Below are positions 4,143-33,555 of a stretch of 33,555 nt of DNA, piece by piece. Within the stretch, counting starts at the first letter, position 1. Every line of letters starts with the position of its first letter. Source of the stretch: Candidatus Micrarchaeota archaeon (GTDB lineage: Archaea > Micrarchaeota > Micrarchaeia > Micrarchaeales > CABMGC01); assembly GCA_027328265.1 (NCBI GenBank), contig DAHVVD010000029.1, positions 1 through 33,555 on the forward strand. Reading direction: 5' to 3'. Under the pieces are notes generated by a model, which saw only the letters and a list, made by a program, of their open reading frames with translations, was not told where the DNA came from and searched no databases. Made by a program: the position numbers and the translations under genes.

Positions 4143-4285
4143 TTGTGCCCACACTACAGCTTTCCCTGTTTCACCTATACAAAATATTCTTATATAACTT
4201 TTGATAAAAGCCTTTGCCGCATTAAACCAAGACCCTGTGTGGCGTAAGGACACGAAGCCGCATTAACGTAATAAATACCTAAATC

Positions 4286-4780: not shown

Positions 4781-5267
4781 AAAAGAAGAGACGCCAAAGG
4801 AACCCAAGAAGGAAGAGGGCCAGAAGAGCGAAAGCGAGGAACTGAAGGACAGGCTGCTCAGGCTCGCAGCGGAATTCGACAATTACAAGAAAAGGTCGTC
4901 AAAAGACCTGGACAATGCGAAAAAGGTAGGGAAGGCGGAGCTAGCAGCAAAGCTCCTTCCGATACTCGACGAGTTCGAGATCGCGATAGAGAGCACCGAC
5001 ACCAAGACTGAGCACGGAAAAGGGATGGCGATTGTCTTCTCAAACTTCGTTGAAGTGATGAAGAAGGAGGGACTCAAGGAAATAGAGTGCAGCGGTGTCT
5101 ATGACCCGTATAAACACGAGATCATGATGACAAAAGAGAGCAATGAAAAAGAAGGAACGATACTTGACGTGATAAGGAAAGGTTATTTATGGAATGAAAT
5201 TATGCTTAGACCCGCTTCGGTGATAGCATCAAGCGGGGAAAAGAAAGAGGAAGAGATAAAAAAGTGA
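4734..5267 (+). CDS. grpE: nucleotide exchange factor GrpE
   Basis: [14 protein letters not shown] signature, charged N-terminus, and position upstream of dnaK. An alternative start is ATG 4749. Confidence 0.85.
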
Positions 5268-5271
5268 TAAC

Positions 5272-7119: not shown

Positions 7120-7137
7120 AAATAGCAGTAGGTCACC

Positions 7138-9764: not shown

Positions 9765-10529
9765 TCATATGTAAAAGTACTCTTTAATAGTTTTGGTTAT
9801 CCGCTCCGCCGTTTCATCAAGGCTCAGTCCCTTGATAGTTGCAATATAATTCACCACGTCAACCACATCTGCAGGTGTTTTGCCCACAGCAGGCGAGTCA
9901 GTTTCAGCAACTATACTACTAAGCTCAATGCTCTTTATAACCCTTTTCCTCCTGCCCGATTCTCCTGGAGGCATCGAGATTATGTAGCCTCTCCTTTCAG
10001 CGCGCTTTGCCATCTCCTCGTCTCCCTCGAAAAAATGAAAGACGGCGCGCTCTACCTCTTCCTTCTCGAGTATCTCCATCACCTTCCCGATAGCCTTCCT
10101 TGCATGTACAACAACTGGAAACCCCAGCTCCTTCGCCACAGCTATCTGCTTTGTGAAGGCATCGACTTGCCTTTCCATCCCTACCGCCTCAAGTATTGTC
10201 TCGTCAAGCCCGATCTCCCCGATGCCGATTATGTTCTTGTTCATCTTCACCAAGTCCATCAGCTCTGCTATCTGTTCGTAATTGGATCCGGAAAAATCAG
10301 GGCTTATTCCAACAACCCCGTATACGCCTTCCTTCGCAAGCTCAAGCATCCTGACATTGCTACTCGCGTTGCTGCCTGCAGTTATGATTATACCGACTCC
10401 CCTCATTCTCGAATCATAGATGACTTTCTCAGCGTCATCGAAAAGGTCTAGGTGGCAGTGGGCATCGGAGAAGGCAACCGCATCCTCCATCCTCATTAGC
10501 CTTGTAGAAGCCTGAGCCGTACCTTGCAC
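9765..10529 (-). CDS. TatD-family metal-dependent hydrolase
   Basis: N-terminal DAHCHLD motif, internal GEIGLD, HAR/HFF motifs. The start may be Met 10496 or 10490. Confidence 0.8.
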   Translation of the reverse strand: MQGTAQASTRLMRMEDAVAFSDAHCHLDLFDDAEKVIYDSRMRGVGIIITAGSNASSNVRMLELAKEGVYGVVGISPDFSGSNYEQIAELMDLVKMNKNIIGIGEIGLDETILEAVGMERQVDAFTKQIAVAKELGFPVVVHARKAIGKVMEILEKEEVERAVFHFFEGDEEMAKRAERRGYIISMPPGESGRRKRVIKSIELSSIVAETDSPAVGKTPADVVDVVNYIATIKGLSLDETAERITKTIKEYFYI

Positions 10530-12430: not shown

Positions 12431-15349
12431 ATGGCGTGGGGCAAGTTCGAAAATGTGAAAAAGCGCGATGGCACTGTAGACGAATTCAGGCCCGAGAAGA
12501 TAAACGAGGCCATAAGGAAGGCGATAGTTGCCACGAGAGGCAGTTCACTGGGCATAGACCTCAACGCCCTTACCGAGCATGCGCTGAAGAACATAGCGGT
12601 CAGATACGCAGGTTATAAGGCGCCTGACGTGGAAGGGGTACAGGACGTCGTCGAAAGGACACTCATGGAATTCGGCCTCTATGACGTCGCAAAGGCTTAC
12701 ATACTATACAGGGAAAGGCACAGGGAGATACGCGAGCGGAAGCAGCAGGAACTGCTGCAGGCAATAGAGCACGGCAATGTCAACGTAGTGAAGAGGAACG
12801 GAAGCAAAGAACGGTTCAAGGAGGCAAAACTCAAGGCATACCTATCGAGGGCATGCAAGGGCTTCGAGGGGGTTGTGGACGTAGAAATGCTGGCAAGGCA
12901 ATGCGAACTAGGGCTCTACGACGGGATAACTACGGCTGATATTTCAAAGCTGGCCATCATGTCATCAAAGGCGATGATAGAGCAGGATCTGGTCTCATAC
13001 GAGGCGATAACTGCAAGGCTCTTTCTCTCGTCTCTCTACAAGGAGGCCCTCCTCCCTGGATTCTCGGGCAACATGGAGAAGGCCTATCGCGATTCATTTG
13101 TTTCTTACATAGGGAAGTCAGTGGCCCAGGGCTTCCTTTCAAAGGAGATGCTCAATTTTGACTTGGAGAAACTCTCAAAGGCGCTCTCTATAGACCGCGA
13201 TCTCCTGATGAACAGCAGGGGCCTCCAGACCCTCTGCGACAGGTATTTCATAAAGGACAAGGAATCCTATCATGCAAGCGAGACGCCTCAGTTCTTCTGG
13301 ATGCGCGTGGCCATGGGACTCTCGCTTAACGAGAAGGACAGGGAAGCAAGTGCGATGCAGTTCTACGAGGCAATGTCATTGCTCAGGTTCGTGCCCTCCA
13401 CTCCTACACTATTCCATTCCGGCACGCCCAGGCCGCAGCTAAGCTCATGCTACCTTACAACAGTAGAGGACGACCTCACCCACATCTTCAAGGCGATATC
13501 CGACAACGCCCAGCTCTCCAAGTGGTCAGGAGGACTTGGCAACGACTGGACCAACATCAGGGCCACAGGCTCGCCAATAAAGAGCACAAACGTCGAGAGC
13601 CAGGGGGTCATACCTTTTCTTAAGATAGCCAACGACACTACAGTCGCGATAAACCGCTCAGGCAAGAGGCGCGGCGCCACATGCGCCTACCTAGAGACAT
13701 GGCACATGGACATAGAGGACTTCATAGACCTCAGGAAGACCACAGGCGACGAGAGGAGGAGGACTCACGACATGGACACTGCGAACTGGATACCTGACCT
13801 CTTCATGAAGCGCGTTATGAACGACGAGAACTGGACGCTCTTTTCTCCAAACGACGTGCCCGAGCTTCACCAGACCTACGGCAAGAAATTCGAGGAGAAG
13901 TACCTTGAGTATGAGAGGATGGCTGCCGAGGGCAAGATCCCACTCTTCAAGACAGTGCGCGCAGCCTCGCTCTGGAGGAGGATGATAACCTCGCTCTTCG
14001 AGACCGGCCACCCATGGATGGTCTTCAAGGATCCAGCCAACGTGCGTTCTCCGCAGGACCACGCCGGCGTGGTGCACAGCTCAAACCTATGCACTGAGAT
14101 AACCCTCAACACGGCCAAGGACGAGACAGCCGTCTGCAACCTCGGCTCGATAAACATACCGATGCACATACGCAACGGCCATCTCGACAGCGAGCTGCTG
14201 AAAGAGACGATACTGACAGCGATGCGCATGCTAGACAATGTCATAGACATAAACTATTATCCAACTCCAGAGGCAAAGAACTCGAACATGAAACACAGAC
14301 CGGTAGGTCTGGGCATAATGGGCTGGCAGGACGCGCTCTACGCGCTCGGGCTGAGCTTCGATTCTGAGGAGGGGGTGGAGCTCGCGGACGAGAGCATGGA
14401 AACCATCTCCTATTATGCCATATTGGCCTCGACTGAGCTCGCCAGGGAGCGCGGGCATTATGAGACATTCAAGGGCTCAAAGTGGGACCGCAGCCTACTT
14501 CCAATAGACACACTTGACATGCTTGAGCAGCAGCGAGGCATCAAGATAGACGTTCCGAGGACATCTAGGATGGACTGGTCTATAGTAAGGAACGCGATAA
14601 AGCAGTACGGCATGAGGAACTCGAACTGCATGGCCATAGCCCCCACGGCGACGATTTCCAACATAGCAGGCTGCTATCCTTCGACAGAGCCGATCTACAA
14701 GAACATCTACGTCAAGTCCAACATGAGCGGTGAATTCACCGTGGTCAACAAGTACCTCGTCGAGGACCTCAAGGCACTTGAGCTCTGGAATCGCACCACG
14801 CTCGAAAAGATAAAGGAGGCAGACGGCAACCTCCAGAACATTGAGTACATACCCCAGAAGCTGAAGAAGAAGTATAAGGAGGCATTCGACATAGAACCGG
14901 AATGGCTCATACGTTCAGCAGCGAGGAGGGCGAAGTGGATAGACCAGAGCCAATCGCTAAACATCTTCAGCGCCACCAACTCCGGCAAGCGCCTCGCCGA
15001 GATATACATGTACGCATGGAAGATGGGACTCAAGTCAACCTACTACCTGAGGACTATAGCGGCATCGGTGATAGAGAAGAGCACACTTGAGATTACAAAC
15101 AGGACAGCGAAGATAGTGATAGAGACCAAGATGAACGACGAGCAGAGGAACAATCCGCCGCTGCAGGAGAAGTCCGAGGCCGACGAGAACAACAGGATGG
15201 TCAGCGTTGGAGACTCCGGTTCGATGGCGCAGGTGCAGATAAAGAAAGAGGCATCGGCTCCAACTGAGCAGGAGACTGTTGAGGGTAAGGCATGCGGGGT
15301 TGACGGCCACCCGATGTCAGAAGAAGAGAACTGTGAAGCATGCCAGTAG
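12431..15349 (+). CDS. nrdA: ribonucleotide reductase class I alpha subunit with two tandem ATP-cones
   Basis: Two VxKRxGxxExF ATP-cone starts (VKKRDGTVDEF, VVKRNGSKERF), catalytic SSNLCTEI and QLSSCYL motifs, C-terminal CEAC pair, and an adjacent beta-subunit gene. Confidence 0.92.
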   Translation: MAWGKFENVKKRDGTVDEFRPEKINEAIRKAIVATRGSSLGIDLNALTEHALKNIAVRYAGYKAPDVEGVQDVVERTLMEFGLYDVAKAYILYRERHREIRERKQQELLQAIEHGNVNVVKRNGSKERFKEAKLKAYLSRACKGFEGVVDVEMLARQCELGLYDGITTADISKLAIMSSKAMIEQDLVSYEAITARLFLSSLYKEALLPGFSGNMEKAYRDSFVSYIGKSVAQGFLSKEMLNFDLEKLSKALSIDRDLLMNSRGLQTLCDRYFIKDKESYHASETPQFFWMRVAMGLSLNEKDREASAMQFYEAMSLLRFVPSTPTLFHSGTPRPQLSSCYLTTVEDDLTHIFKAISDNAQLSKWSGGLGNDWTNIRATGSPIKSTNVESQGVIPFLKIANDTTVAINRSGKRRGATCAYLETWHMDIEDFIDLRKTTGDERRRTHDMDTANWIPDLFMKRVMNDENWTLFSPNDVPELHQTYGKKFEEKYLEYERMAAEGKIPLFKTVRAASLWRRMITSLFETGHPWMVFKDPANVRSPQDHAGVVHSSNLCTEITLNTAKDETAVCNLGSINIPMHIRNGHLDSELLKETILTAMRMLDNVIDINYYPTPEAKNSNMKHRPVGLGIMGWQDALYALGLSFDSEEGVELADESMETISYYAILASTELARERGHYETFKGSKWDRSLLPIDTLDMLEQQRGIKIDVPRTSRMDWSIVRNAIKQYGMRNSNCMAIAPTATISNIAGCYPSTEPIYKNIYVKSNMSGEFTVVNKYLVEDLKALELWNRTTLEKIKEADGNLQNIEYIPQKLKKKYKEAFDIEPEWLIRSAARRAKWIDQSQSLNIFSATNSGKRLAEIYMYAWKMGLKSTYYLRTIAASVIEKSTLEITNRTAKIVIETKMNDEQRNNPPLQEKSEADENNRMVSVGDSGSMAQVQIKKEASAPTEQETVEGKACGVDGHPMSEEENCEACQ

Positions 15350-15361
15350 AAATGTGATATC

Positions 15362-16360
15362 ATGAAGCAAATACTTAACGCGTCTGAAATTGACCCCAAC
15401 AAGATCCTCCCGATAAAATACGAATGGGCCAGGACCCATTACAAGGCAGGAGTCGCGAACAACTGGGTGCCTGAAGAGATACCGATGCAGCAGGACATAG
15501 AGCTCTGGAAGAAGAAGGGAGGCCTGAGCGACGAGGAAAGAAGGATGATACTCTGGAACCTTGGCTTCTTCTCCACAGCAGAGAGCCTGACAGCCAACAA
15601 CATAGTACTCTCGATATACAGGCACATAACAAACCCAGAGTCGAGGCAGTACTTACTGAGGCAGGCTTACGAAGAAGCTGTCCACACCGAGATGTTCCTC
15701 TACTGCTGCGATTCCCTCGGCCTGGACCCTGACGAGATATACAACATGTACAATACAGTACCTAGCATAAAGGCCAAGGACGATTTCGTGGTTGAGCTGA
15801 CAAAAACAATGCTCAATCCCAACTTCAGCACCGTGGGGAAGGAGAACATCCAGACGTTCGTCTACGACCTCGTGGGCTACTACATCATAATGGAAGGAAT
15901 CTTCTTCTACGCAGGATTCGCGATGATGCTCTCGCTCCTGAGGAGCAACAGGATGGTCGGCGTAGGCGAGCAGTTCCAGTACGTGCTGCGCGACGAGACT
16001 GTGCATCTGGCATTCGGCGCCGACCTGATAAACCAGATAGTCGAGGAGAACCCAGAGATCTGGACAGAGGACTTCAAGAAATCCATAACAGCTTCGATAC
16101 TCAAGGGCGTGGACCTCGAGATAGCATACGCGAGGGACGCCCTGCCCAAGGGCATACTCGGCCTGAATGCCGAGACCATAAAGGAGTACATGGAGTACAT
16201 AGCAGACAGGAGGCTCGAGAGGATAGGACTCAAGAAGGTCTTCAACTCCGAGAACCCGTTCCCATGGATGAGCGAGATCATAGACCTCAGGAAGGAGAAG
16301 AACTTCTTCGAGACAAGGGTAACAGAGTACAAGAACCGCGGAGAACTCTCTTGGGAGTAG
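15362..16360 (+). CDS. nrdB: ribonucleotide reductase class I beta subunit (class Ic-like)
   Basis: Ferritin-like ligand motifs STAES, EEAVHTEMF, MEGIFF, RDETVHLAF. Phe occupies the radical-Tyr position (4 residues after the His of ExxH). Glu occupies the first-ligand position. Confidence 0.92.
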   Translation: MKQILNASEIDPNKILPIKYEWARTHYKAGVANNWVPEEIPMQQDIELWKKKGGLSDEERRMILWNLGFFSTAESLTANNIVLSIYRHITNPESRQYLLRQAYEEAVHTEMFLYCCDSLGLDPDEIYNMYNTVPSIKAKDDFVVELTKTMLNPNFSTVGKENIQTFVYDLVGYYIIMEGIFFYAGFAMMLSLLRSNRMVGVGEQFQYVLRDETVHLAFGADLINQIVEENPEIWTEDFKKSITASILKGVDLEIAYARDALPKGILGLNAETIKEYMEYIADRRLERIGLKKVFNSENPFPWMSEIIDLRKEKNFFETRVTEYKNRGELSWE

Positions 16361-16434: not shown

Positions 16435-17313
16435 TTGGCGGCGTTCAAGCTCCAAAGCGCCATGGAGTACCTGATGACCTACGGATGGGCCATACTGATA
16501 ATTGCAGTTGTACTGGGTGCGCTCTTCACACTTGGATTCTTCAATTCTGCTAACCTGGCTCCAAAAGTGCCTCCTGGAAGCTGCAAGGTCTACAGACCGA
16601 ACGGCCCAGGAACCACGTCGTACATAAACACTGAAGGAACATGCAATAATGGTCTGCCGCAATATGCCGCAAAATTCAACGGGGCCTCGAGTTACATAAA
16701 CCTCGGCTCAGGCGTCTCTTCTTATACATCTGGAAACTTCGCGGTAAGCTTCTGGGCTTACGCTACAGGTGCTTCAGGTTCTACGGCAGTTTCTTCCGTT
16801 GCTTCTGGAGGATGGAATAGCAATCTCTTTGTCATTTATGTTGGAGATACAGCCATTAACGGCGCGGCTAAAGTATACTGGAATGGCGGAACCATAGCTA
16901 CAGCTGCTGCAGCCTCAACCGTAACGAACGGCTGGCACTTTTTTGCAGTTACGGATAATGGGGGCACCATGAATATATATATCGACGGAGCTAATGCCGC
17001 GGCCGGCTCAGTCAGCGGTACAATCACCGCGGTCTCTACGTTTATAGGAGCTGCTGATGATGATGGCAGCCCTACGCAATTTTATCCCGGAGAGATTTCA
17101 AATGTGCAGATCTACAACAGTTCTTTATCCCAAAACGAAATAACAAGCCTTTATGACGAGGGTATTGGTGGCGCGCCGATAGTACTACCATGGCTTGTGG
17201 GATGGTGGCCTCTGAACGGCAACGGCAAGGACTACAGCGGAGACCTCAACAACGGAGCTGTGACTAACACGGTATTCATAACTTCTTGGACATCCAGCTA
17301 TTCGGCACCATGA
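16435..17313 (+). CDS. type IV pilin-like protein (class III signal peptide) fused to a LamG/concanavalin-A-like domain
   Basis: N-terminus (M)AAFKLQSAMEYLMTYGWAILIIAVVLGALF is an archaeal prepilin-type signal. 'GNFAVSFWAY ... NGWHFFAVTDNGGTMNIYIDGA ... GEISNVQIYNSSLSQNEITSLY' is typical of LamG (Laminin_G_3-like) domains. TTG start aligned with the ATG of the paralog. Confidence 0.7.
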   Translation: MAAFKLQSAMEYLMTYGWAILIIAVVLGALFTLGFFNSANLAPKVPPGSCKVYRPNGPGTTSYINTEGTCNNGLPQYAAKFNGASSYINLGSGVSSYTSGNFAVSFWAYATGASGSTAVSSVASGGWNSNLFVIYVGDTAINGAAKVYWNGGTIATAAAASTVTNGWHFFAVTDNGGTMNIYIDGANAAAGSVSGTITAVSTFIGAADDDGSPTQFYPGEISNVQIYNSSLSQNEITSLYDEGIGGAPIVLPWLVGWWPLNGNGKDYSGDLNNGAVTNTVFITSWTSSYSAP

Positions 17314-23846: not shown

Positions 23847-24719
23847 TCAGAAAGGCTCCTCTCCGAATTTTCTTGAGAGCGCTTCTATTCCTCCGCGCAT
23901 TACAAAAACATCTACCCCATAGTCCCTCTTAAGTATCTTGGCGAGATGAAGCGCCTCAGATTCTTCATAACTTATCAAGATGCAACCTTTCCAAGCTGCA
24001 ACTTTCTCCCTCTTCAGATCTGTCATCTCTCCGAGGCTCACCTTAATCACCTTCTCCTTATCGACTCCTAGAAGATTAACCACTTCCTGTACGGGCTCGA
24101 GCCCTAGCCAGATGAACTTCGCGCCTTTCTCCACCTTATCGAAAGCCTCCTTTAGCGTAAGCTCGCTCGCGCTCCTCTTCTCCTGGTAGACTGTGGTCTG
24201 GCGGGATGATCCCTCAACCTTTCCAAAAACCTCCTCGCGGCTCCCAGCAAGTGCCATGTTCTCCACCACCTCGGTGATGAAGGTCGAGATCTTGAGCGCG
24301 TCAGCTGGCCAGAGCCCATCAACCTCCCCCTCCTTCTTCACTGCCTGGCTGGAGTCCGCGAAGCCGTGTATGCGTATGTGCACCGACGAGAACAGCCTTC
24401 CCCTTGTCTTGAGAACGCTTATTATGTTGTTGTACGGTATGATGCTTATCTCCGAGGGCGAGCCGAGGTTGAAGCCGAAATAAAGCCCCCAGAAAGAGGG
24501 CATGGCTATTATCACCCGCTTGTTCGTTACTACTATCTTATTCGGCGCTAGGTCCCTCAGGAGGCTCTGCTTCACCTCTATTATGGTCTCCTCGTCCTTC
24601 ACAAGCGTGTCCTTGAGGGCGTTCAGGCACCTCTTGGTGTGGGCGTGCGGCTGGTAGTTTCCGCTCTCGACGAGCGTCTGCTTTGCCCTCTCTACAGCCA
24701 AGTGTACCTGAGACTCCAA
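23847..24719 (-). CDS. hypothetical protein: bacterial-PH-like (bPH_2-like) domain plus rhodanese-like C-terminal domain lacking the catalytic Cys
   Basis: 'IVVTNKRVIIAMP ... ISIIPYNNIISVLKTRGRLFSSVHIRIHG' resembles bPH domains. The C-terminal 'GCILISYEESEALHLAKILKRDYGVDVFVMRGGIEA' resembles a rhodanese core with Ser/Tyr where CxxGxR would be. Weak assignment made by eye. Confidence 0.35.
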   Translation of the reverse strand: MESQVHLAVERAKQTLVESGNYQPHAHTKRCLNALKDTLVKDEETIIEVKQSLLRDLAPNKIVVTNKRVIIAMPSFWGLYFGFNLGSPSEISIIPYNNIISVLKTRGRLFSSVHIRIHGFADSSQAVKKEGEVDGLWPADALKISTFITEVVENMALAGSREEVFGKVEGSSRQTTVYQEKRSASELTLKEAFDKVEKGAKFIWLGLEPVQEVVNLLGVDKEKVIKVSLGEMTDLKREKVAAWKGCILISYEESEALHLAKILKRDYGVDVFVMRGGIEALSRKFGEEPF

Positions 24720-24760
24720 CCCATAAACCCTGTAGCTTACTGTAATTTACTGTAATCAGT

Positions 24761-25513
24761 TCAGTTCCTGTAGCCCCAGCTTCCTACGATCGCAAGAGCG
24801 AAGCCGAAGAGGCTCAGGACGAAGTAAAGATTATTCCCAAGTGTGATTGAGAGAAGGATGACGCCTGTAAGTCCACCGACGAGCCACGCGCCCCTGTTCA
24901 TGTTGCTGAAAGCCCCCAGGTTTATGAAGCTTATAAAGAAGAGTGCAATTGCACCTATCATCGCCGCTGAGAAGAGGAGGGGCTCAAGCGGTGCCACGCT
25001 GAGCACTGCGCCGAGATAGGCGCCGCCTATAGCAGTGAAGGCTATTAGCAGGTAGACTATGCTCGCGAGGAACTCGAAGAAGAACTTCTTCTTCCTGACC
25101 TCGGCATTAAAGGCGACCCTTCGCCTGTTCCTCCTCTTAAGGTAGGCATGGTGTCCTATCCCTCCGCTCGCGAAAGAGAGCGCAAATCCAATCAGCACAA
25201 CGAGCAGCATAGCATAATTGCCAAATGTCAGCGCAACGAGCGAGACGCCGACGAGAACAGTTATGAAGAGCGAGAGAATCACAGTCTCCTCCCTTATGCC
25301 GAAGAGGTTTGTAAAACTGAGCAGAAAGAGCACTATAGCGCCAACTGCGGCGACAAGATATGCGGCTATGTTCCAGGATGCGCCAGCCCATGCGGCGTAT
25401 GGGTAAGAGCCGCCGAACGAGAGCGCAACAATCAGCAGGTATGCCAGGCTACCTAGGAAGCCTAGCCCAAAGACCCTCAAAATATGAGCCTCATTATTCG
25501 TGCCTATAGCCAC
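24761..25513 (-). CDS. 8-TM membrane protein made of two tandem copies of a 4-TM module
   Basis: Both halves share a module start (FLGSLAYLLIVALSFGG / FLASIVYLLIAFTAIGG) with the neighbouring 126-aa protein (FIGSLIYLIVVFTGLGG). A basic linker (KRRNRRRVAFNAEVRKKK) joins the halves. Confidence 0.55.
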   Translation of the reverse strand: MAIGTNNEAHILRVFGLGFLGSLAYLLIVALSFGGSYPYAAWAGASWNIAAYLVAAVGAIVLFLLSFTNLFGIREETVILSLFITVLVGVSLVALTFGNYAMLLVVLIGFALSFASGGIGHHAYLKRRNRRRVAFNAEVRKKKFFFEFLASIVYLLIAFTAIGGAYLGAVLSVAPLEPLLFSAAMIGAIALFFISFINLGAFSNMNRGAWLVGGLTGVILLSITLGNNLYFVLSLFGFALAIVGSWGYRN

Positions 25514-25645: not shown

Positions 25646-26026
25646 TTACATCGAGGATGCAGCTGCTCCCAGGAATGCAAGGACGAAGCCCAGCAAGCTT
25701 ACGAGCATGTAGGTAGAGTTTCCAGCCGTAAGGGCTACAAGCGCTATGCCGCTGATAGTGGCTGCCTTCATTGCGCTCGCCGTCGCCGTCTTTGCCATCC
25801 CGCCGAAGTTAGCGAAGCTCGTGAAGAAGAGTGTTATCGAGCCGATAGCCGCTACTCCGAAGAGTATAGTCCATGCCCATGCCGTATTAGCCTGGGTCAA
25901 CACCGCACCAGCATATCCACCCAGTCCTGTAAAGACTACAATAAGGTAGATAAGGCTGCCGATGAACTCGAGGCCGAATGCGCCCCATAGATTCTTAGAC
26001 TGTTTTGCCATTTTACCACGGTACAC
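25646..26026 (-). CDS. 4-TM membrane protein, single-module paralog of 24761-25513
   Basis: Four hydrophobic segments and shared motifs with both halves of the downstream gene. An alternative start is Met 26011. Confidence 0.55.
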   Translation of the reverse strand: MYRGKMAKQSKNLWGAFGLEFIGSLIYLIVVFTGLGGYAGAVLTQANTAWAWTILFGVAAIGSITLFFTSFANFGGMAKTATASAMKAATISGIALVALTAGNSTYMLVSLLGFVLAFLGAAASSM

Positions 26027-26171: not shown

Positions 26172-26242
26172 GGCCTTGGCCGGGAATCGAACCCGGTCCT
26201 GGGGGTCCACAACCCCCTGTGCTACCGTTACACAACCAAGGC
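26172..26242 (-). tRNA. tRNA-His (anticodon GTG), G-1 not genomically encoded
   Basis: Minus-strand read: GCCTTGG TT GTGT AACGGTA GCAC A GGGGG TTGTGGA CCCCC AGGA CCGGG TTCGATT CCCGG CCAAGGC C. The base 5' of G1 is T. The discriminator is C73. Confidence 0.85.
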
Positions 26243-26350: not shown

Positions 26351-27958
26351 GTGCTCTTCTCCCTGGTCTATACTCTGTTCTCGATACTGCTCTCAATAGG
26401 CAACATCAACGCACTCATACCCATAATGGTCATAATAATACTCATTGTAGCTGCTGCCGGCGCGAGCAGGGGCTTCAGCATCTTCAACATCTTCGGCGTC
26501 TCCTCCCTTCTCGGAGGCGGGGTAGGTTCAGGCGGAGGCTCGTCCAACCTGGCAAGGAGCGGCTACAGCCTCAGAGGATTCCTGGACATAAGGGGCACGC
26601 CGACGAATCCAAGGGGAAGGGCCACGCTTAAGAAAGTAGTCAATAAGTACTTCGGAAAAGAATCACCAGATAACTACCTCTATTCAATGTTCGGCGGGAA
26701 AAAGAAGATCACTTTCGGCGGCAGGGATATAGGCGTCATAAAATTCAAGCCAGGAAGCGACCAGAAAAGGGTGGCGAAACTTGCAAAGATAGACGCCGAG
26801 GCAAGGTTCCTGTATGACCGATATAACTCCGGGTCAGATCTCCACAAGCCTGGCACAGAAGTCATATCCGAATCCGAGCTGAAGAATCGCCAATCAATGA
26901 CCAGCGGAAAATTCATAAAGATGGCAACCGCTCCTTTTTTCTTCAGCAGCGCGCGCTACTGGGCTGAAGGAGGCAAGCGCTATGCCGAGGAGAGGAAAAA
27001 AGCAGAGGTTACCTCGTACAAGAAGATAGACATGTTGAATGAGAAGGAGGTTCTGCAAGGAGAGATAAATCAACTAAAAGCAAGGTTCGCTTTGTCTAAG
27101 AATGAGATAGACAGAATGATTATAATGCGGGACAAGGGCAACCTGCAGAAGCGCCTGAAAGCAATCGATGAGTCGCTGGGAGAGATCAAGAAGGCCTCCA
27201 GGCTCTCATTCGACCAATTCAGTTGGGCCTATGCAAAACAGCACAACAGACTGTACGGCCCGCCTGACAGCAACATCCGACAAAACCTGATGAACCCGCT
27301 GTATGGATTCTCAATATCCAACACCACAAACCGCATGAAGGAATCAGCAGATGCAGTGTCCAATGCGGTTAAAGGGGTGACACTTGGCACAACGGTTGGC
27401 ATGGCGCACCTTGTGGCGGGAGCCACCGGGGCCAACAAGAACGAGCGGGTGGCCAAGGCCCTGCACGACCTAAGTGCCGGAGCTGCCAAGGCTCAAGGCC
27501 TGGCTCTTTACGGGCCTGGCACCTATAAGACCAATCCAAGGACAGGAGAGATGACTGAGCCAGCGGAGCACCTGACCGCATCAGAGGCCAGAGAGAAGGC
27601 CAAAGCCATGACCGAGGAGTTCCACGAAAGGCTTGCAGACGCCGCTGAAGAATACAAAAGAGGCATAGAGAGTCGCCTCAAATCCTACGAGAAGGCCAAG
27701 GAAAAAGGTCATGTCAGCCAAGCTGATATCGAGAGCATAGAGGGGCTAAAGCAGGGCATATCATATGCCCTTGCCTACAACAAGGTCAAGGGCGTGTACC
27801 AGAAAGAGGCAAGGGAGAGGAGGAAAAGGGCGGAGGAGGCAGAGGGGAATGAGGATAGAAAAGCGAGAGAAGAGGAGTCAAGGGCATATGAAAAGGAGCG
27901 CGCCTCAAAGGCCAGGGAAAAAAGAAGGAGAAAAGGCGACTCCGAAAGGGAAAGTTAA
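26351..27958 (+). CDS. hypothetical N-terminally membrane-anchored coiled-coil protein with Gly-rich hinge and highly charged K/R/E tail
   Basis: Two N-terminal hydrophobic segments, then GGGVGSGGGSS. Heptad-like stretches (EKEVLQGEINQLKARFALSKNEIDRMII ... LQKRLKAIDESLGEIKK). C-terminal ~60 aa are almost only K/R/E/A. GTG start preceded by SD-like aggtgg. No family recognised. Confidence 0.6.
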   Translation: MLFSLVYTLFSILLSIGNINALIPIMVIIILIVAAAGASRGFSIFNIFGVSSLLGGGVGSGGGSSNLARSGYSLRGFLDIRGTPTNPRGRATLKKVVNKYFGKESPDNYLYSMFGGKKKITFGGRDIGVIKFKPGSDQKRVAKLAKIDAEARFLYDRYNSGSDLHKPGTEVISESELKNRQSMTSGKFIKMATAPFFFSSARYWAEGGKRYAEERKKAEVTSYKKIDMLNEKEVLQGEINQLKARFALSKNEIDRMIIMRDKGNLQKRLKAIDESLGEIKKASRLSFDQFSWAYAKQHNRLYGPPDSNIRQNLMNPLYGFSISNTTNRMKESADAVSNAVKGVTLGTTVGMAHLVAGATGANKNERVAKALHDLSAGAAKAQGLALYGPGTYKTNPRTGEMTEPAEHLTASEAREKAKAMTEEFHERLADAAEEYKRGIESRLKSYEKAKEKGHVSQADIESIEGLKQGISYALAYNKVKGVYQKEARERRKRAEEAEGNEDRKAREEESRAYEKERASKAREKRRRKGDSERES

Positions 27959-28038
27959 AGCGGCGCCGAACAAAACACCTAGACTGCTTCTTCCCCTTTG
28001 ATAAAGATAGCGATTATATTATTATAGTTTATCATAAT

Positions 28039-29541
28039 ATGGGCTTCATGCAAAATAGAAGCAGGATTTCGCTTCTGCTACTTTCGTTCGTTCTCATATC
28101 TGCCTTCACTTTTGTCGGTGCGCAATTCATTTCCACCCCATCTCCAACACCAACCCCTACTCCTAACCCAACTCCAGCCCCGGCCCCAGCGCCTGCTCCA
28201 AGCCCACTTCCAGTTTCCTCAACTTCTACACCTACAACTTCAACCTCCTCAACCACAACATCTCCACTTCCTCAAGGACCAACTGCTGAATGCACTGCGA
28301 TTTTTGGAAGTGGCACCTCAGCCAGTACCTCTGCGCTCCAGGCGCTTGGTCTCTCTGCTGCCATATCTAGGAACGCAATCTCAGCCTCCCTTCTTGCGCT
28401 CATCATCTCTTTCGATGTAGTTGGCATAGGCTACATGATAAGCAAGCTTATTCCTGAATCGAAGGTCAGGGGCTGGCTCGGCAAGGAATACTGGGAGGTT
28501 GCAAAGTCTGTTATACTGGTTGGCAGCATATTTTCAATACTAACATTCATCAGCGGCTTAGGCATCTCGCTGACAGGCAGCGGCACCCCTGGAACATACT
28601 CATCAAACATCCAGAACCTTGTCTCCAGCTCAGAAAGCTACCTATGCACAGTAAACAACCAGGTGAACCTCGCAATAAACAACGTAGTCCCGCTGATAAT
28701 AGGGATAGGTTTCCTGAAGAGCATTCAAATAAATTATGAAGGATTCCCTATACCTCCTGTTCCAATTCCTATAGCCCCCGAACTCCCTGTCCTCAGGGCA
28801 GGCATCTCCTTCAAGCTCTTCGACAATTTGCTTTATGGCGTCGCTTTCACCTATTTGGGCTTCGGTCTATCTGCATTCCTAGATATGCTTCTCTTCCTAA
28901 TCATTCCAGCTAAAGTCTTTTTCGCGGGCCAGGTGCTCATACTTCCATACTTGGTGAGCTTGGGACTTATAGTGCTGATACCTACAGGCCTCATAATGCG
29001 CGCCTTCCCATTTTCCAGAGGCATAGGCGGCACCCTGATAGCTTTCGGAATAGGCATTGCCATTGTATGGCCCACCATTCTAATACTTTTCAATGCTCCA
29101 ATATCCAATTACTTCTGCAGAGTCCTATCAACGAACTACTGCCTGCCTCTTGGTCCGTCCCCTTCAGCTGCGCAGACTACCATCCAGCTCTACAACGCGC
29201 CTGAGACAATCCAGGCTACTAGCGAATGCAATGGCGCCACCTTGGGCCTTGGAGCCACCGGGAACGTTCCCGGAGGGTTGCTCCTTGCACTAGTTTGCCA
29301 GCCGCTTGCCAATTGGTGGATCTCTACTGGCTATACTGAATTCTCATTGCCCTGGCAGAGTGCCATATCATTCTTCCCCTCGCTCAACGTCCTGCTAGAC
29401 AATAGCCTATACTTGGATCTCCAATTCTTCGTGCTCTTCATTCTGGATCTTCTGATCGCTTATACAATAACCGACAACATTGCAAAAATGCTGGGCGGCA
29501 CGATCCGCGTTAGCCTTGGCAATAAGCTGAAACTGGTGTAA
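28039..29541 (+). CDS. paralog 1 of uncharacterised polytopic membrane protein family (signal peptide plus Pro/Thr-rich linker)
   Basis: Signal peptide ...FTFVGA|QF, a 50-aa P/T/S/A linker, multiple TM segments, 6 Cys, shared motifs (KEYWEV ... ; MRAFPFSRGIGG ... VWP), and C-terminal tail LGGTIRVSLGNKLKLV. Confidence 0.7.
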   Translation: MGFMQNRSRISLLLLSFVLISAFTFVGAQFISTPSPTPTPTPNPTPAPAPAPAPSPLPVSSTSTPTTSTSSTTTSPLPQGPTAECTAIFGSGTSASTSALQALGLSAAISRNAISASLLALIISFDVVGIGYMISKLIPESKVRGWLGKEYWEVAKSVILVGSIFSILTFISGLGISLTGSGTPGTYSSNIQNLVSSSESYLCTVNNQVNLAINNVVPLIIGIGFLKSIQINYEGFPIPPVPIPIAPELPVLRAGISFKLFDNLLYGVAFTYLGFGLSAFLDMLLFLIIPAKVFFAGQVLILPYLVSLGLIVLIPTGLIMRAFPFSRGIGGTLIAFGIGIAIVWPTILILFNAPISNYFCRVLSTNYCLPLGPSPSAAQTTIQLYNAPETIQATSECNGATLGLGATGNVPGGLLLALVCQPLANWWISTGYTEFSLPWQSAISFFPSLNVLLDNSLYLDLQFFVLFILDLLIAYTITDNIAKMLGGTIRVSLGNKLKLV

Positions 29542-29543
29542 TT

Positions 29544-30821
29544 ATGTTTTGGAACCTACTCACTACCAATTTCCTAAACCTGTGCAGTGCCAACATTTCC
29601 TACCTCAACCACAACAACTGGATAGGGATAACTCTGCTTGTCGTTCTCACCTTCATGATGGTGGGCGCAGCGGCTTACGGTCTCAGCGGCATCCTTCCAG
29701 TAAACATGAGGGAGAAGATAAGGGGCTCTGTCAAGTATGAATACGTCCAAGGCGTCTTCAGCATTGTGCTCGTAGCCGCGATCTTCGCAATCTCGCTCAC
29801 GGCATGCAGCGTTGAGGGCGCCATAACCTCAAGCGCTACCAAGTTAGGCGGCCCTCCCTTGGGAGTCACGCCAGCCTGCGGCACATCTTACACCGATCCA
29901 TTCCAGTTCTCTAACTGCTACGTCGGAAACCTCCTCTTCTCAAAGGGCACAGCCCTGGTATCGGGAATGATATCTGAAGGCTTCTTCCTCTTTGCCGAGG
30001 GCAATCTCCTCTACTTCGTTGTCAACAGCGCGGCTCAAAAACTGCCCAAAGCGGCAGGTGCAGGCACTCTCTTCGGAGCCATAAACTGGGGTTTCGACAT
30101 CTCTCCCTCAATATCCAATTCGGAGGGCCCTGCAGAAATATTCTACGATTACAGTTTCATCTTGGTCCTCGTCTTCGAGACGATAATAGTAGCAACCTTC
30201 GGCCTTCTATTTCTGCTCTTCCTGAGCCTCGGCTTCATAGAGCTGCTCTCACTCACGCTGGTCCTTCCCGTAGCCATAGCCATGCGCTGCATATCCTTTG
30301 CAGGCCCCAAATTGAAGGAAGCCTCCAACGCATTCATAGCAATCGCAATAGCCTTCTATTTTGTCTTCCCTGTAACGATAGCGATGAACTACTACATAGT
30401 CAACTGGACCTATTGCTCCAACGGCGGGGCGTGCAATCCATACGCAGAGAGCTATCTCAGCACCTATACGCTAAACACGCTTCCGCTAATTAACCTCTTC
30501 TCAAACCCCGAAAACGTAGTTCTGGGTTCAGGAACAGGAGCCGGAGGCCTCAACCTTAACCTGCCTCTCAACTTTTACGGCGCGGTGATGCAGAGCAACG
30601 GCGGTTTCATAAACATGGTAGCTAACATCTTCGTCGCAGCGGTAGCCCTGCCCAACGTTATGAACAACTACACCACACAGACCGCGCAATTCGTCTTCGA
30701 GGGCATCTTCCTGATAGCACTTGACCTTGCGATAACCGTGGGCTTTTCGGTTGGATTTTTCAAGGGGCTTGAGACAGTAGGTCAGATACTGGCTGTAGGG
30801 CCGGTCTGGGGAGGAGGTTAA
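29544..30821 (+). CDS. paralog 2 of uncharacterised polytopic membrane protein family
   Basis: Starts 2 nt after the upstream stop. Shares the motifs (REKIRGSVKYEYVQGVFSIVLVAAIF; AMRCISFAGPK ... FVFP). No obvious cleavable signal peptide. Confidence 0.7.
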   Translation: MFWNLLTTNFLNLCSANISYLNHNNWIGITLLVVLTFMMVGAAAYGLSGILPVNMREKIRGSVKYEYVQGVFSIVLVAAIFAISLTACSVEGAITSSATKLGGPPLGVTPACGTSYTDPFQFSNCYVGNLLFSKGTALVSGMISEGFFLFAEGNLLYFVVNSAAQKLPKAAGAGTLFGAINWGFDISPSISNSEGPAEIFYDYSFILVLVFETIIVATFGLLFLLFLSLGFIELLSLTLVLPVAIAMRCISFAGPKLKEASNAFIAIAIAFYFVFPVTIAMNYYIVNWTYCSNGGACNPYAESYLSTYTLNTLPLINLFSNPENVVLGSGTGAGGLNLNLPLNFYGAVMQSNGGFINMVANIFVAAVALPNVMNNYTTQTAQFVFEGIFLIALDLAITVGFSVGFFKGLETVGQILAVGPVWGGG

Positions 30822-32333
30822 ATGGAGAAGACAGCACTGCTTTACCTCTCTGTTTTCATCCTTGCCTCATTGTCAATGCCAATCCTCACCAACGCTCAGG
30901 GCCCTCTCCCAGGAACATCTCCTGGGCCGGTTTCCAACCCTTCCTATCCGCTAACATCGAACGTCTCAGTCTTCTATAACTGGCTGCCTGTGATCATAGT
31001 GGCGGTCTTTGCAGCCGTGGGCCTGACAGCAATCTACTACGGACTGGGAGCGTTGCTTAACAACCAGAGGGTAAAGACCAACGCGATAAATGAATTCTAT
31101 CAGGTACTGGGCACCGTGGTTGTGGTAATAATAATACTGGCTATCTTCAGCGTCTATGGAAGTGCCATAATAGCCGACGGGCCCCTGACTACCGCCCTTG
31201 CCAACATCTGCGGCAGCAACCAGCTAGGCTCTGCCAACACAATGGTGAATTTCCTAAGCAGCAATTCGCTTGACACCGCCACTACAGGGCCAACAAGCCA
31301 GATATGCGCCGATATTGTCGCGGTAGGCCAGGGCAGCGGCATAACCTCGAAGATAGACTACGGCCTCGGCGCCACTTACGCCATAATAGCAAACCTCACC
31401 AATCAGGAGGCTGAGAGCCTAAATGCCGTAAACGTATTCGAAACCTATGCCTCAACCCTCAACAGCTTCCTTCCCACTGAGAGCCTCTGCTGGCCAGCTA
31501 CATGCGCCGACACGAATCTGTTGCCTTCAGGCTACATAGTATACCAATACAGGCCCTGGTCCCTGTACGACAAGATAAGGGGCATGACGCTTTACGTGGG
31601 CGCCGAGGCCCTCCTCTCATTCTACATCAGCATAATGCAGCTCATAGTGATAATAATGCTGCTCTTCGCCTGGCCATACATACTTGCAGCAGGCATAATC
31701 CTGAGAGCCTCATTCTTCACGCGCAAGGCAGGCGGCCTGCTCATAGCGATAGTTATCGTCGCTATTATCCTGTATCCCCTACTCAACCTTTTCGAGTATG
31801 CATCGCTGAGCAACACCCTGTCCAGTCCCATAGGTGCGAGCAAGATACCCGCATTCACCCTCAAGGGCCAGGCGCCATGTTCATTGACCTCGCTATTTAC
31901 AGGATGCGGAATAAAAAATCCAGCTCCTGTGATAGATTACACCGACACCAAGCTCAACTTCTATGTGCTGCCCAACCTTGAATATGTACTGAACCTAGAT
32001 GGCTGCTGGCCGCCGGCAGGAAATGTCTTCCTCTCTGATGCGCTGATCGCGGGAGCCTACAGCATACCTGGTTACGCCACCTTTCTTGCCATAAAGGACA
32101 TCATAGGCGCATTCGTAAGCTCGCTCCCATCGCCTCCGATACCATGGTTCAGTTGCAATCCAGGTAACGCCATACAATCCATTGTCGACTTGGCGAAATT
32201 CTATGGCATGGTCTTCGTCACTACTGTTCTCCTGCCTGTATTGAACATACTGATACTCCTCTCCGGGGTCAAGAACATCTCCAGCCTGCTAGGCGGAGAT
32301 ACCAGGATACTGGGACTTGGCAAATTGGTTTAG
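30822..32333 (+). CDS. paralog 3 of uncharacterised polytopic membrane protein family
   Basis: ATG abuts the upstream TAA and is preceded by a strong SD (ggaggaggt). Signal peptide ...ILTNA|QG, 8 Cys, motif LRASFFTRKAGG ... ILYP, and C-terminal tail LGGDTRILGLGKLV. Confidence 0.7.
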   Translation: MEKTALLYLSVFILASLSMPILTNAQGPLPGTSPGPVSNPSYPLTSNVSVFYNWLPVIIVAVFAAVGLTAIYYGLGALLNNQRVKTNAINEFYQVLGTVVVVIIILAIFSVYGSAIIADGPLTTALANICGSNQLGSANTMVNFLSSNSLDTATTGPTSQICADIVAVGQGSGITSKIDYGLGATYAIIANLTNQEAESLNAVNVFETYASTLNSFLPTESLCWPATCADTNLLPSGYIVYQYRPWSLYDKIRGMTLYVGAEALLSFYISIMQLIVIIMLLFAWPYILAAGIILRASFFTRKAGGLLIAIVIVAIILYPLLNLFEYASLSNTLSSPIGASKIPAFTLKGQAPCSLTSLFTGCGIKNPAPVIDYTDTKLNFYVLPNLEYVLNLDGCWPPAGNVFLSDALIAGAYSIPGYATFLAIKDIIGAFVSSLPSPPIPWFSCNPGNAIQSIVDLAKFYGMVFVTTVLLPVLNILILLSGVKNISSLLGGDTRILGLGKLV

Positions 32334-32340
32334 TGATCAT

Positions 32341-33555
32341 ATGAGCAGAACCAAAATCTTTTATATCGCAATCTTCCTCCTCTCGCTAGCGCTACTGCCC
32401 TCCTTTTCCAATGCACAAACAGCCACGCCTGGGTTCGGTTTCGGCTCCTACTGCTCGAGCTTCTATCAGAATGCCAACGGAGCAGTGAGCAACGCGTTTG
32501 TCAAAGGGGTCTTCTCCGGCGGGATAGTCTCGCTAGCCCTGCTTATCGTGCTCTTCGTTGTTGTCTCCCTCTCGGTAGTCTACGGCATAGGCATTGGATT
32601 CGGGATAAACAAGCTGACCGAATTCGCGAAGACCGAGTACATAGAGAGCTTTTTCAACATCGTGCTAATCATAGTGCTTGCTGGCTCATTCATGACTATC
32701 GGCAAATACGCGCAGTTCTTTACCAGTCTCGCCTCGTCAAACCTGCCCTCTACCAGCCAGCCAAACCTTGGCGGAAGCGTCATAAGCATGTACGAAGGCA
32801 TATGCACAGGGCTCATATACAGCCAGATACTCCCATCTATCGGCGCAATCTATTCCATATATGCTGCACAGATGCCGTACTCTGCGATCTCCAGCTTAAA
32901 GATAAACCTCAACATTCCGGCACTCACGACTGGCATGGCATCTGATTTCATTCCGTCATTCTCATTCGGCCCCTGGGAAGGCCTCAACATATATGGGGAC
33001 GTGCTGCTTTTCGAGTTTGCGCCTCTTGCCATGATACTCTTCCTTGGGATTTCTGTAATCTTCCTTTTCTACCTGATCTATTTCCTTTTTCCCGTCTTCC
33101 TTTACCTCGGTGTCCTGCTGCGCTCCTTCCCATGGACCCGCGCCGCTGGCGGCTCGATGCTCGCGCTTTTCATCTCCTTCTACATAATTTTCCCTGCGCT
33201 CTACTATCCATTCTCAGTGCTTGGCAATACGTATCTTTCAAGCCTCGGCTCCGCTTCACTCCAGCAGGAGATATGCTCCCTAATGGGCCAGATAGGAAAC
33301 TGCAAAAATTACCAATCCCCAGGGACATTCAGCACCATATTCAACTATGCATCTACACTCTTTTCCAATTTCTTCACTGCGTCCAGCTCGATCTTACTCG
33401 CATTTACCGGCCCAGGGAACCTCTTCATTGTAGTGAGCGAGACTTACACCAACGTTATCGCAGCATCGATACTCAAGCTCCTCGGCCTGACGATAGCATT
33501 TATCATCTCCTTCGACCTTCTCGAGGCTCTTGGAGACTTCCTTGGCTCCCCATCG
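32341..33555 (+). CDS. paralog 4 of uncharacterised polytopic membrane protein family (3'-truncated by window end)
   Basis: Not in the ORF track because no stop falls in the window. I translated 405 codons with no stop: MSRTKIFYIAIFLLSLALLPSFSNA|QTATPGFGF ... Motifs NKLTEFAKTEYIESFFNIVLIIVLAGSF and LRSFPWTRAAGGSMLALFISFYIIFP. Confidence 0.65.
   Translation, partial: MSRTKIFYIAIFLLSLALLPSFSNAQTATPGFGFGSYCSSFYQNANGAVSNAFVKGVFSGGIVSLALLIVLFVVVSLSVVYGIGIGFGINKLTEFAKTEYIESFFNIVLIIVLAGSFMTIGKYAQFFTSLASSNLPSTSQPNLGGSVISMYEGICTGLIYSQILPSIGAIYSIYAAQMPYSAISSLKINLNIPALTTGMASDFIPSFSFGPWEGLNIYGDVLLFEFAPLAMILFLGISVIFLFYLIYFLFPVFLYLGVLLRSFPWTRAAGGSMLALFISFYIIFPALYYPFSVLGNTYLSSLGSASLQQEICSLMGQIGNCKNYQSPGTFSTIFNYASTLFSNFFTASSSILLAFTGPGNLFIVVSETYTNVIAASILKLLGLTIAFIISFDLLEALGDFLGSPS

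Follow-up and report, generated by a model that had tools for sequence, protein, structure and literature searches.

A membrane-protein array at the end of a Micrarchaeota contig

The stretch of DNA under study, hereafter the window, comprises 33,555 nucleotides (nt) of contig DAHVVD010000029.1 from a Candidatus Micrarchaeota archaeon (assembly GCA_027328265.1) and closes with an array of genes for polytopic membrane proteins, here called P1 to P4, whose relationship to known translocation systems is the subject of this work. The array is preceded by a TATA-like element and by a gene that we call UP (aa, amino acids; TM, transmembrane segment):

26351..27958, plus strand: UP, an N-terminal membrane anchor with a conserved AAAGxSRGFSxFNxFG stretch; behind it, a long coiled-coil-like region rich in Lys and Glu
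28013..28026, plus strand: attatattattata, an AT-rich TATA-like element read from the sequence, 13-26 nt 5' of the P1 ATG
28039..29541, plus strand: P1, 500 aa; signal peptide, Pro/Thr/Ser-rich linker and a putatively CedA-like core of five predicted TMs; first of six paralogs
29544..30821, plus strand: P2, 425 aa; most divergent paralog, without a cleavable signal peptide; motif MRCISFAGPKLKEASN...FVFP
30822..32333, plus strand: P3, 503 aa; largest paralog, with eight Cys in two outside loops
32341..33555, plus strand: P4, 405 aa; the window end cuts the open reading frame (ORF) about 10 residues before the stop

A reading of the window from the sequence alone (below, the sequence-only reading) had described the four genes as co-directional and tightly packed, with spacers of 2, 0 and 7 nt (P1/P2, P2/P3 and P3/P4, respectively) and Shine-Dalgarno-like strings, and we found all of this as described: ggtg, ggaggaggt and gtgatc lie directly 5' of P2, P3 and P4, respectively. 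The TATA-like element could be a putative archaeal promoter for a leaderless or short-leader transcript. The suggestion that the genes form one operon running off the window agrees with related loci, in which the operon-like array continues with P5, P6, two further proteins (Q1 and Q2) and an ATPase. These loci (L001, L002 and so forth) lie on related contigs and were annotated with our own ORF caller and BLAST.

Each of the window genes has 1:1 orthologs in L001 and L002, at 31–40% identity overall (P1, 35–40% to L002:7485-8732 and L001:7571-8791; P2, 31–36%; P4, 34% to L002:11453-12691, with residues 36–405 aligned to ortholog residues 25–401 of 412), and the window therefore holds four of six paralogs, the array being cut at the window end inside P4. 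Between the paralogs themselves, direct BLAST similarity was weak (26% over 222 aa for P1–P4 and 22% over 373 aa for P3–P4). When ortholog alignments were compared with hhalign, we obtained 99.1% (E 1.8e-18) for P3–P4, 98.7% (E 3e-16) for P1–P2 and 94.7% (E 6e-8) for P3–P2, and P1 to P4 are distant, statistically supported paralogs. The proposed array of paralogs thus stands on hhalign values of 94.7–99.1%, with its number corrected from four to six.

The P proteins share a common layout. Signal-peptide-like N-termini, which had been recognized in three of the four, end in VGA in P1, TNA in P3 and SNA in P4, each before a Q, and none was found in P2. A short basic loop links the first TM (TM1) to TM2, from which a long loop on the outside leads to TM3; the turn R..F.(T/S)R..GG connects TM3 with TM4, after which P1 to P4 carry a second long outside loop, TM5 and a short tail with (L/I)GG in most paralogs. 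A common motif had earlier been aligned by eye, and R..F.(T/S)R..GG.LIA...........P is the best-conserved stretch among 118 family members, with one Pro invariant and two Arg nearly so. Basic segments were found in the short TM1–2 loop, in the TM3–4 loop and in the C-terminal tail of P1 and P3. The Cys counts of six in P1 and eight in P3 agree with those given previously, and P2 and P4 have seven and four; all but two of these 25 residues (P2 C88, inside TM2, and P2 C249, in the short TM3–4 loop) fall within the long loops or the mature N-terminus. The basic short loops and tails together with the 23 outside Cys therefore fit a predicted topology with the N-terminus outside, five TMs and the C-terminus inside. 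Cys accounts for about 1% of the P proteins versus 0.03–0.2% of the cytoplasmic proteins of the cluster described below (5–30 times more), and even counts dominate in relatives. By contrast with what had been claimed, N-x-S/T sequons are not enriched, as their density of 3–7 per 1000 aa is about the same as in the cytoplasmic cluster proteins.

That the proteins belong to no standard family, as the sequence-only reading had it, was borne out by both sequence and fold searches. None of P1 to P4 matched a Pfam family at E 0.01 or better, be it PilC/TadB (T2SSF), AglB/STT3 or another membrane family, and there was no meaningful match in NCBIfam, where Ced_CedA (NF041796) went unmatched at E up to 0.1. 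TrbL/VirB6 (PF04610) was matched in Pfam at E up to 1 neither by P1 to P4 nor by 42 P3 orthologs. Three of these 42 orthologs matched PsaL (Pfam E 0.0012), which we took to be spurious, and the 42-sequence P3 profile returned only such spurious PsaL matches from PDB sequences. The AlphaFold2 (AF2) model of P3 (pLDDT 78.7, pTM 0.77) displays long helical hairpins and had no significant Foldseek neighbor in PDB or BFVD; TrbL/VirB6 entries appeared only at E 1–2.4, with TrwI at rank 23 (E 2.4, TM-score 0.28).

A conserved gene cluster across Micrarchaeota

The array is not unique to this genome. All 43 P3 homologs were hypothetical proteins of Micrarchaeota metagenome-assembled genomes (MAGs), some of them labeled Marsarchaeota, in keeping with the small-genome host that had been surmised, here a DPANN archaeon. 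In a scan of one genome per species, 91 genomes encoded P3, each in a single copy; nearly all of them bear the names Micrarchaeota, Micrarchaeia or Micrarchaeaceae. Complete clusters of the Micrarchaeota type were also seen on contigs binned as Saccharimonadales bacterium, 'bacterium' and Methanothrix sp. (L004, DATJMH010000008.1; L006; and L047, JAVYSI010000036.1); these labels are probably binning or labeling errors.

Gene order was read in about 80 loci from the 91 species-level genomes, about 65 of which were long enough to reach the ATPase gene. In the latter the order is fixed as P1 to P6, (UP), Q1, Q2, ATPase, S1, S2, S3 and a large surface protein, except for four loci in which the surface-protein gene is inverted directly after P6. 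The cluster thus comprises roughly 14 genes, of which P1 to P4 are the first four, and nearly all Micrarchaeota retain it. An ATPase beyond the window end had been considered in the sequence-only reading, and its position after P6-Q1-Q2 in these loci was decisive for the interpretation that follows.

The partners of the P proteins are diverse. Q1 and Q2 have about 277 and 275 aa, the ATPase about 500 aa, and S1, S2 and S3 about 100, 130 and 240 aa, respectively. S2 consists of a zinc ribbon plus a TM, and S3 of a coiled coil plus a C-terminal winged-helix-like domain. S1 (L002:18265-18519) appears to be a free-standing copy of the ATPase C-terminal domain (about residues 400–500), because its hidden Markov model (HMM) matches that domain in the one-copy systems described below (E 1e-9 to 6e-5); this kinship hints at substrate or regulatory binding, and S1 also faintly matches helix-turn-helix (HTH) families of the MerR/StbB type. 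In all inspected clusters a very basic ORF of 48–51 aa (MKY.V.IN..F.Y.K.Y.I.K....N.N..S...; L002:19774-19920, L001:19831-19986 and equivalents) lies between S3 and the surface-protein gene; its small product, which is not hydrophobic, may bind nucleic acids. The surface protein, which ends most clusters long enough to show its gene, has about 790 aa in the two loci that hold the full gene (L007:19279-21666 and L009:19840-22197). It begins with an anchor or signal sequence, and its N-x-S/T sequons reach a density of 36.6 per 1000 aa. It had no Pfam match by which it could be equated with, or told from, the published surface-layer (S-layer) protein SLP_Mh (101 kDa). UP is an accessory member of the cluster: a homolog was found by BLAST in about one quarter of the related loci, placed before P1 or between P6 and Q1, and its N-terminal ~50 aa share 54–58% identity with the protein upstream of P1 in L002. 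UP itself had no match in Pfam, NCBIfam or PDB, and its GTG start is uncertain; a TTTAAAT box lies about 30 nt 5' of this start.

No cluster member is as well conserved as the ATPase (63–86% identity between aligned loci), which has Walker A (GITGAGKS) and Walker B (VVLDEAW) motifs that are invariant or nearly so and Pfam signatures of DUF87, AAA_10 and the TraG P-loop. Its best NCBIfam matches were, in order, CedD, VirB4-like CD1110, CedB and HerA, none of which came near its curated cut-off. Among PDB sequences, HerA entries gave the lowest E-values but covered only the distal motor (residues ~234–398), whereas the VirB4 C-terminal domain 4ag5 spans the whole motor, from Walker A onward. The protein is a motor of the FtsK/HerA/VirB4 superfamily, and a motor alone, without the N-terminal membrane domain of CedB-like ATPases. 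Since its AF2 model was poor (pLDDT 50 from a shallow alignment, with only the C-terminal domain confident at pLDDT 85–90), a Foldseek search with it was uninformative. A HerA-NurA repair helicase was ruled out by the partial HerA matches and by the neighbors: Walker A starts near residue 70, which leaves no room for an N-terminal HAS-barrel, and NurA, Mre11 and Rad50 were absent from the neighborhoods of the inspected loci.

Simpler relatives and a probable link to Ced-type systems

The archaeal Ced and Ted systems descend from conjugative type IV secretion. In these systems, CedA/TedA are VirB6-like, CedB/TedB VirB4-like and CedA1/TedC VirB2-like pilins, the N-terminus of CedA resembles CedA1, and CedA has been linked to VirB6 by published HHpred work (PMC9905601). 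While a homolog search with the Micrarchaeota ATPase gave only Micrarchaeota orthologs among the matches listed, an exhaustive HMMER search with the ATPase profile against 1.84 billion representatives reached two kinds of outgroup. The first kind comprises full-length ATPases of ~480–515 aa (330–500 bits) that reside in one-copy versions of the cluster, and the second comprises ATPases of 860–980 aa (120–210 bits) with an N-terminal extension that carries a TM hairpin, for which CedB was the best NCBIfam match.

The one-copy clusters are found in other archaea (L088:2437-7037, L095:999-4906 and L097:1566-5028; also L085, L087 and L096), located among informational genes such as PriS/PriL, PheRS-beta and SRP54. 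In L088, L095 and L097 a single P-like protein (314–345 aa) and a single Q-like protein (260–268 aa) precede the ATPase, which is followed by an S3-like protein in L088 and L095 and by two large proteins (648 and 471 aa) in L097. PA14- or Big-domain proteins of 471–1004 aa adjoin the ATPase in one-copy systems; L088 additionally encodes a 210-aa polytopic protein. Against every one of the six Micrarchaeota P classes, the P-like proteins reach 98–99.3% (hhalign), and the ATPases have CedB as their first NCBIfam match, at 103 and 74 bits and thus far below the cut-off. In L097 a 79-aa two-helix protein is encoded directly before the P-like gene, with Pfam matches only to TrbC/VirB2 pilin (E 0.0024) and T4SS_pilin (E 0.099), neither of which reaches its gathering score, and the resulting order of pilin-like, P, Q and ATPase genes parallels CedA1, CedA and CedB. 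These one-copy clusters seem to preserve the form from which the Micrarchaeota system arose.

In the clusters with a long ATPase, named members of which belong to Thermoproteota and Nitrosopumilaceae, the ATPase follows a polytopic protein of ~290 aa (L086, L089 and L090), which in L086 matches Ced_CedA (E 6e-23). This protein is in turn preceded by an 84-aa CedA1 match in L086 (E 9e-16) and by a 99-aa pilin-like protein in L089. Besides this pilin-like protein, the L089 set (L089:4676-10221) comprises a CedA-like protein and a long ATPase (287 and 861 aa, respectively) together with a further protein of 57 aa. It adjoins a phage-type integrase gene, so that some members of the wider family are possibly carried on integrated elements.

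The clearest connection between the Micrarchaeota cluster and these systems came from Q1 and Q2. The two are paralogs (hhalign 97%, E 1.1e-10), and when compared with the N-terminal 320 aa of six long CedB-like ATPases (860–915 aa), Q1 matched at 96.5% (E 7.4e-10, 170 columns, ATPase residues ~85–257) and Q2 at 87.3% (E 3.8e-6). Three of these six ATPases were looked up, and all three adjoin CedA or CedA-like genes, two of them also a CedA1/pilin-like gene. Neither the Q1 nor the Q2 profile matched PDB sequences. On this profile evidence, Q1 and Q2 are homologs of the CedB-like N-domain (a TM hairpin plus N-domain, the equivalent of VirB3 and the VirB4 N-terminal domain), and the matches identify them as stand-alone copies of the anchor and N-domain that CedB carries in cis.

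A more remote relationship was detected for the P proteins. A broad profile built from 118 sequences, which covered all six Micrarchaeota classes plus the one-copy forms, matched four CedA-like proteins at 87.5% (hhalign, E 3.6e-6) over 137 co-linear columns, and three of them at 81.3%. The aligned region is the C-terminal half of P (TM3, the basic turn, the GG-containing TM4, the last TM and the (L/I)GG tail), wherein the RxxxxRxxGG...P turn-helix of P pairs with the RxGRxxG...P turn-helix of CedA and the last TM with its tail pairs with the CedA tail. The controls were clean: 40 local column shuffles of the CedA alignment scored at most 16.8 and the reversed alignment 13.0, against 47.9 for the real one, and the same P profile gave 0.2% against TrwI/VirB6. 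Apart from Ced_CedA (best E 7e-4), moreover, no NCBIfam family was matched at E < 0.01 by two or more of the 118 members. Homology of P to CedA-like channel proteins is on these grounds moderately supported, as only the C-terminal half aligns, and the curated CedA cut-off is not reached. In further searches for CedA relatives, hmmsearch with the cluster HMMs returned no match among the CedA-like proteins and a scan of viral contigs found none, while a metagenome scan found two. The N-terminal hairpin of P aligned with CedA1/VirB2-like pilins in a constant register, though not significantly (E 0.015–0.045). The published resemblance of the CedA N-terminus to CedA1 was recovered in our own set of sequences (93.8%).

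These relationships bear on the view that the array is part of an envelope or cell-contact machine that is specific to this lineage and of no T4SS (type IV secretion system) or Ced ancestry, into which a generic HerA/FtsK-type motor was recruited independently. The failure of P1 to P4 to match Pfam, NCBIfam or PDB, the lack of a significant structural neighbor for the P3 model, the negative hhalign comparison with TrwI/VirB6 and the HerA entries at the top of the PDB matches by E-value would all suit such an origin. We nevertheless consider it unlikely, given that Q1 and Q2 match the CedB-like N-domain, that the P profile matches CedA-like proteins with clean null controls, that the gene order of L097 resembles CedA1, CedA and CedB, and that VirB4-type matches extend over the entire motor, unlike those to HerA.

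It is even less probable, and we reject on the grounds of distribution and genomic context, that the array is mobile, carried for instance by a provirus or an integrated conjugative element, and does not belong to the core machinery of the host. VirB4-type ATPases are typical of conjugative elements and the Ced-like cluster of L089 lies beside an integrase, yet the Micrarchaeota cluster occurs once per genome in 91 species-level genomes, in identical order in nearly all sufficiently long loci and with an ATPase whose identity tracks the host lineage. No integrase, relaxase or replication genes were found in or beside the cluster loci, the GC content is not deviant, and the flanks of the cluster are core genes: a ribosomal protein operon precedes the cluster both in the window and in L002, where the cluster directly follows the S5 gene.

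In the window this operon encodes S4e, L32e and L19e, and it is followed 3' by two minus-strand genes, tRNA-His, UP and the plus-strand array. The other genes and features of the window are:

812-1588, minus strand: Fic/DOC protein
3423-4253, minus strand: KaiC/RadA-like ATPase
4734-8253, plus strand: GrpE-DnaK-DnaJ
9765-10529, minus strand: TatD DNase
12431-16360, plus strand: class I ribonucleotide reductase, large subunit with ATP cones and small subunit
16435-17313, plus strand: protein with a Laminin_G_3/concanavalin-A-like lectin domain
23847-25513, minus strand: two ORFs (290 and 250 aa) without Pfam match, between the ribosomal operon and the cluster
25646-26026, minus strand: membrane-protein gene
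26172-26242, minus strand: tRNA-His (anticodon GTG), between the membrane-protein gene and UP

In Mia14 and other DPANN, a part in the interaction with the host has been proposed for LamG proteins (PMC5498576). The nucleotide-salvage genes on the contig could be relevant if the cargo of the machine discussed below is DNA.

A candidate translocation machine and its known counterparts

Given the evidence above, we read P1 to P4 as the front of a chromosomal, vertically inherited, Micrarchaeota-wide translocation machine that is a strongly derived relative of the Ced/Ted systems, and we put the probability of this reading at roughly 0.7. The channel subunit would have been expanded to six paralogs and the ATPase split into the Q1/Q2 anchors and the motor. 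The cluster probably works like Ced/Ted and shares ancestry with them, while its members fall outside the curated CedA, CedB, VirB4 and TrbL/VirB6 definitions. A wholly novel machine without relatives, as first envisaged, is therefore not what we found, since the cluster belongs with the Ced/Ted/T4SS-derived systems. The analogy that had been drawn to arrays of VirB6 paralogs was apt, considering the VirB4/CedB-like ATPase downstream, the split N-domain and the CedA-like profile match, but a direct relation to TrbL/VirB6 was not found. As to the idea of a host-contact or transfer structure, host contact is something we infer.

Mechanistically, P1 to P6 would assemble into a hetero-oligomeric channel or stalk, with disulfide-stabilized loops that project into the space under the S-layer. 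Q1 and Q2 would dock the hexameric ATPase to this channel, and ATP hydrolysis by the motor would move the substrate across the membrane. S1, S2, S3 and the 48–51-aa basic protein may act as cytoplasmic accessory or substrate-handling factors, and the large sequon-rich protein may form the surface-exposed part of the machine. By analogy with Ced/Ted, the most likely cargo is DNA, at which the accessory proteins (winged-helix, HTH-like and zinc-ribbon) hint only weakly; the machine may instead handle a protein substrate or serve as a host-directed conduit. A surface or host-contact role may also apply, considering the recurring large surface-protein neighbors, which are sequon-rich in Micrarchaeota and carry PA14 or Big domains in the one-copy systems. 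A bolder version, which we regard as speculative and rather unlikely, holds that the six paralogs combine into a heterohexameric ring with pseudo-six-fold symmetry, which pairs one-to-one with the ATPase hexamer via Q1/Q2. This would be the first hetero-oligomeric channel of the CedA/VirB6 type, the core of a conduit that takes DNA, nucleotides or other macromolecules from Thermoplasmatales hosts, and hence the archaeal counterpart of the Patescibacteria T4SS needed for epibiotic growth.

The surface-protein neighbors also raise the question of whether the P proteins are a channel at all. With a Ced/T4SS-derived motor, the P proteins could serve a structural or surface function (as stalk, pilus base, or anchor of the S-layer or an adhesin) in an apparatus whose job is the assembly or display of a glycosylated surface protein, or host adhesion. 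Such a role would account for the surface protein at the end of most clusters, for the PA14- and Big-domain proteins beside the ATPase in one-copy systems, for the cleavable signal peptides of four P classes out of six, among them P1, P3 and P4 of the window, together with the large Cys-containing outside loops, and for the weak alignment of the N-terminal hairpin with pilins in one register. The pilin alignments are not significant, however, and the surface protein has a signal or anchor sequence of its own. Furthermore, the most conserved part of P is the membrane hairpin with the cytoplasmic turn and tail and not the outside loops, and a role as channel or motor dock therefore fits better; we judge the structural-subunit alternative improbable.

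Several observations weigh against a Ced/Ted-derived translocation machine. The window does not reach the ATPase, Q and S genes, whose presence in this genome is deduced from relatives. The P–CedA link is remote, restricted to one half of the protein and to four CedA-like sequences, and at 87.5% below the usual level of 95%; it became significant only with the broad 118-sequence profile, single P classes reaching 0.1–12%. The curated CedA, CedB and VirB4 cut-offs were missed by a wide margin; one P member, from L095, scored 16.4 bits against the 330 bits for CedA proper (NF041796). Similarity to bacterial TrbL/VirB6 was not found by Pfam, hhalign or Foldseek, with hhalign of P profiles against TrwI/VirB6 at 0.1–0.2%, a test of limited sensitivity because the TrwI profile was narrow (at least 50% identity). 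Lastly, none of the ORFs of at least 70 aa in the Micrarchaeota clusters was pilin-like (smaller ones were checked only in the gap between S3 and the surface-protein gene, and no dedicated two-helix scan was made), and the cluster lacks a relaxase, a coupling protein, a nuclease and any other gene from which its cargo could be told.

For the supply of host material to DPANN archaea with reduced genomes, no dedicated Micrarchaeota machinery has been named so far, and the phylum-wide fixed order and conserved ATPase make the cluster a candidate for an essential cell-surface function. It would extend the conjugation-derived archaeal systems from Thermoproteota to DPANN and display two unusual evolutionary moves, namely the six-fold subfunctionalization of a channel subunit and the fission of a motor into anchor and engine. 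We found no publication joining CedB and DPANN in open-access PMC and bioRxiv; there, Micrarchaeota genome and co-culture papers make no mention of the cluster, and those that name type IV secretion concern other topics by title and abstract. Existing co-cultures, such as Ca. Micrarchaeum harzensis with Scheffleriplasma and Mancarchaeum with Cuniculiplasma, would allow tests.

Among known systems, Ced (Sulfolobales: CedA, CedA1, CedA2 and CedB) and Ted (Thermoproteales: TedA, TedB and TedC) come closest. Like the Micrarchaeota cluster they are chromosomal, domesticated and devoid of a relaxase or coupling protein, with a VirB4/HerA-like ATPase encoded beside a polytopic channel protein. The resemblance to Ced extends to Q1/Q2, which are homologous to the N-domain of the collected CedB-like ATPases (themselves below the curated CedB cut-off), to the C-terminal half of CedA-like proteins, which matches the P family, and to the order of pilin, channel and ATPase in the one-copy relative L097. 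The Micrarchaeota cluster differs in having six channel paralogs instead of one and an ATPase split into two membrane N-domain proteins and a soluble motor. Its P proteins are larger (350–600 versus ~260–290 aa), with mostly cleavable signal peptides and two Cys-containing outside loops of 80–145 aa, and it has additional partners (S1–S3, the small basic protein and the large glycoprotein), with no pilin gene seen among the ORFs examined. Its host, moreover, is a DPANN symbiont and not a free-living thermophile, and neither the curated CedA nor the CedB cut-off is reached.

The comparison with bacterial TrbL/VirB6, for example TrwI of R388, is one of role. VirB6 is the polytopic channel core of the inner membrane, with the N-terminus outside, about five TMs, the C-terminus inside and a large outside loop, and the P proteins may by analogy represent a channel core of similar topology; tandem multiplication of the VirB6 subunit has reportedly occurred in Rickettsiales. 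Nevertheless, no sequence, profile or fold similarity between TrbL/VirB6 and P was detectable, and the two are linked only via CedA. The HerA-NurA system, too, has an ATPase of the same superfamily, but the partners of the cluster ATPase are membrane proteins.

Finally, chromosomal T4SSs without relaxase have been described in Patescibacteria (candidate phyla radiation, CPR), where VirB4, VirB6 and VirB3-like genes have been reported to be essential for epibiotic growth in one cultured strain (PMC12102498). Those systems are built from bacterial parts of the mating-pair-formation (MPF)-FATA type known to standard profiles and show neither six-fold channel paralogy nor a split ATPase. Like the Micrarchaeota cluster, they are conjugation-derived, relaxase-less, chromosomal and kept across a radiation of ultrasmall host-dependent cells, and the archaeal machine proposed here would thus have a parallel in ultrasmall bacteria.

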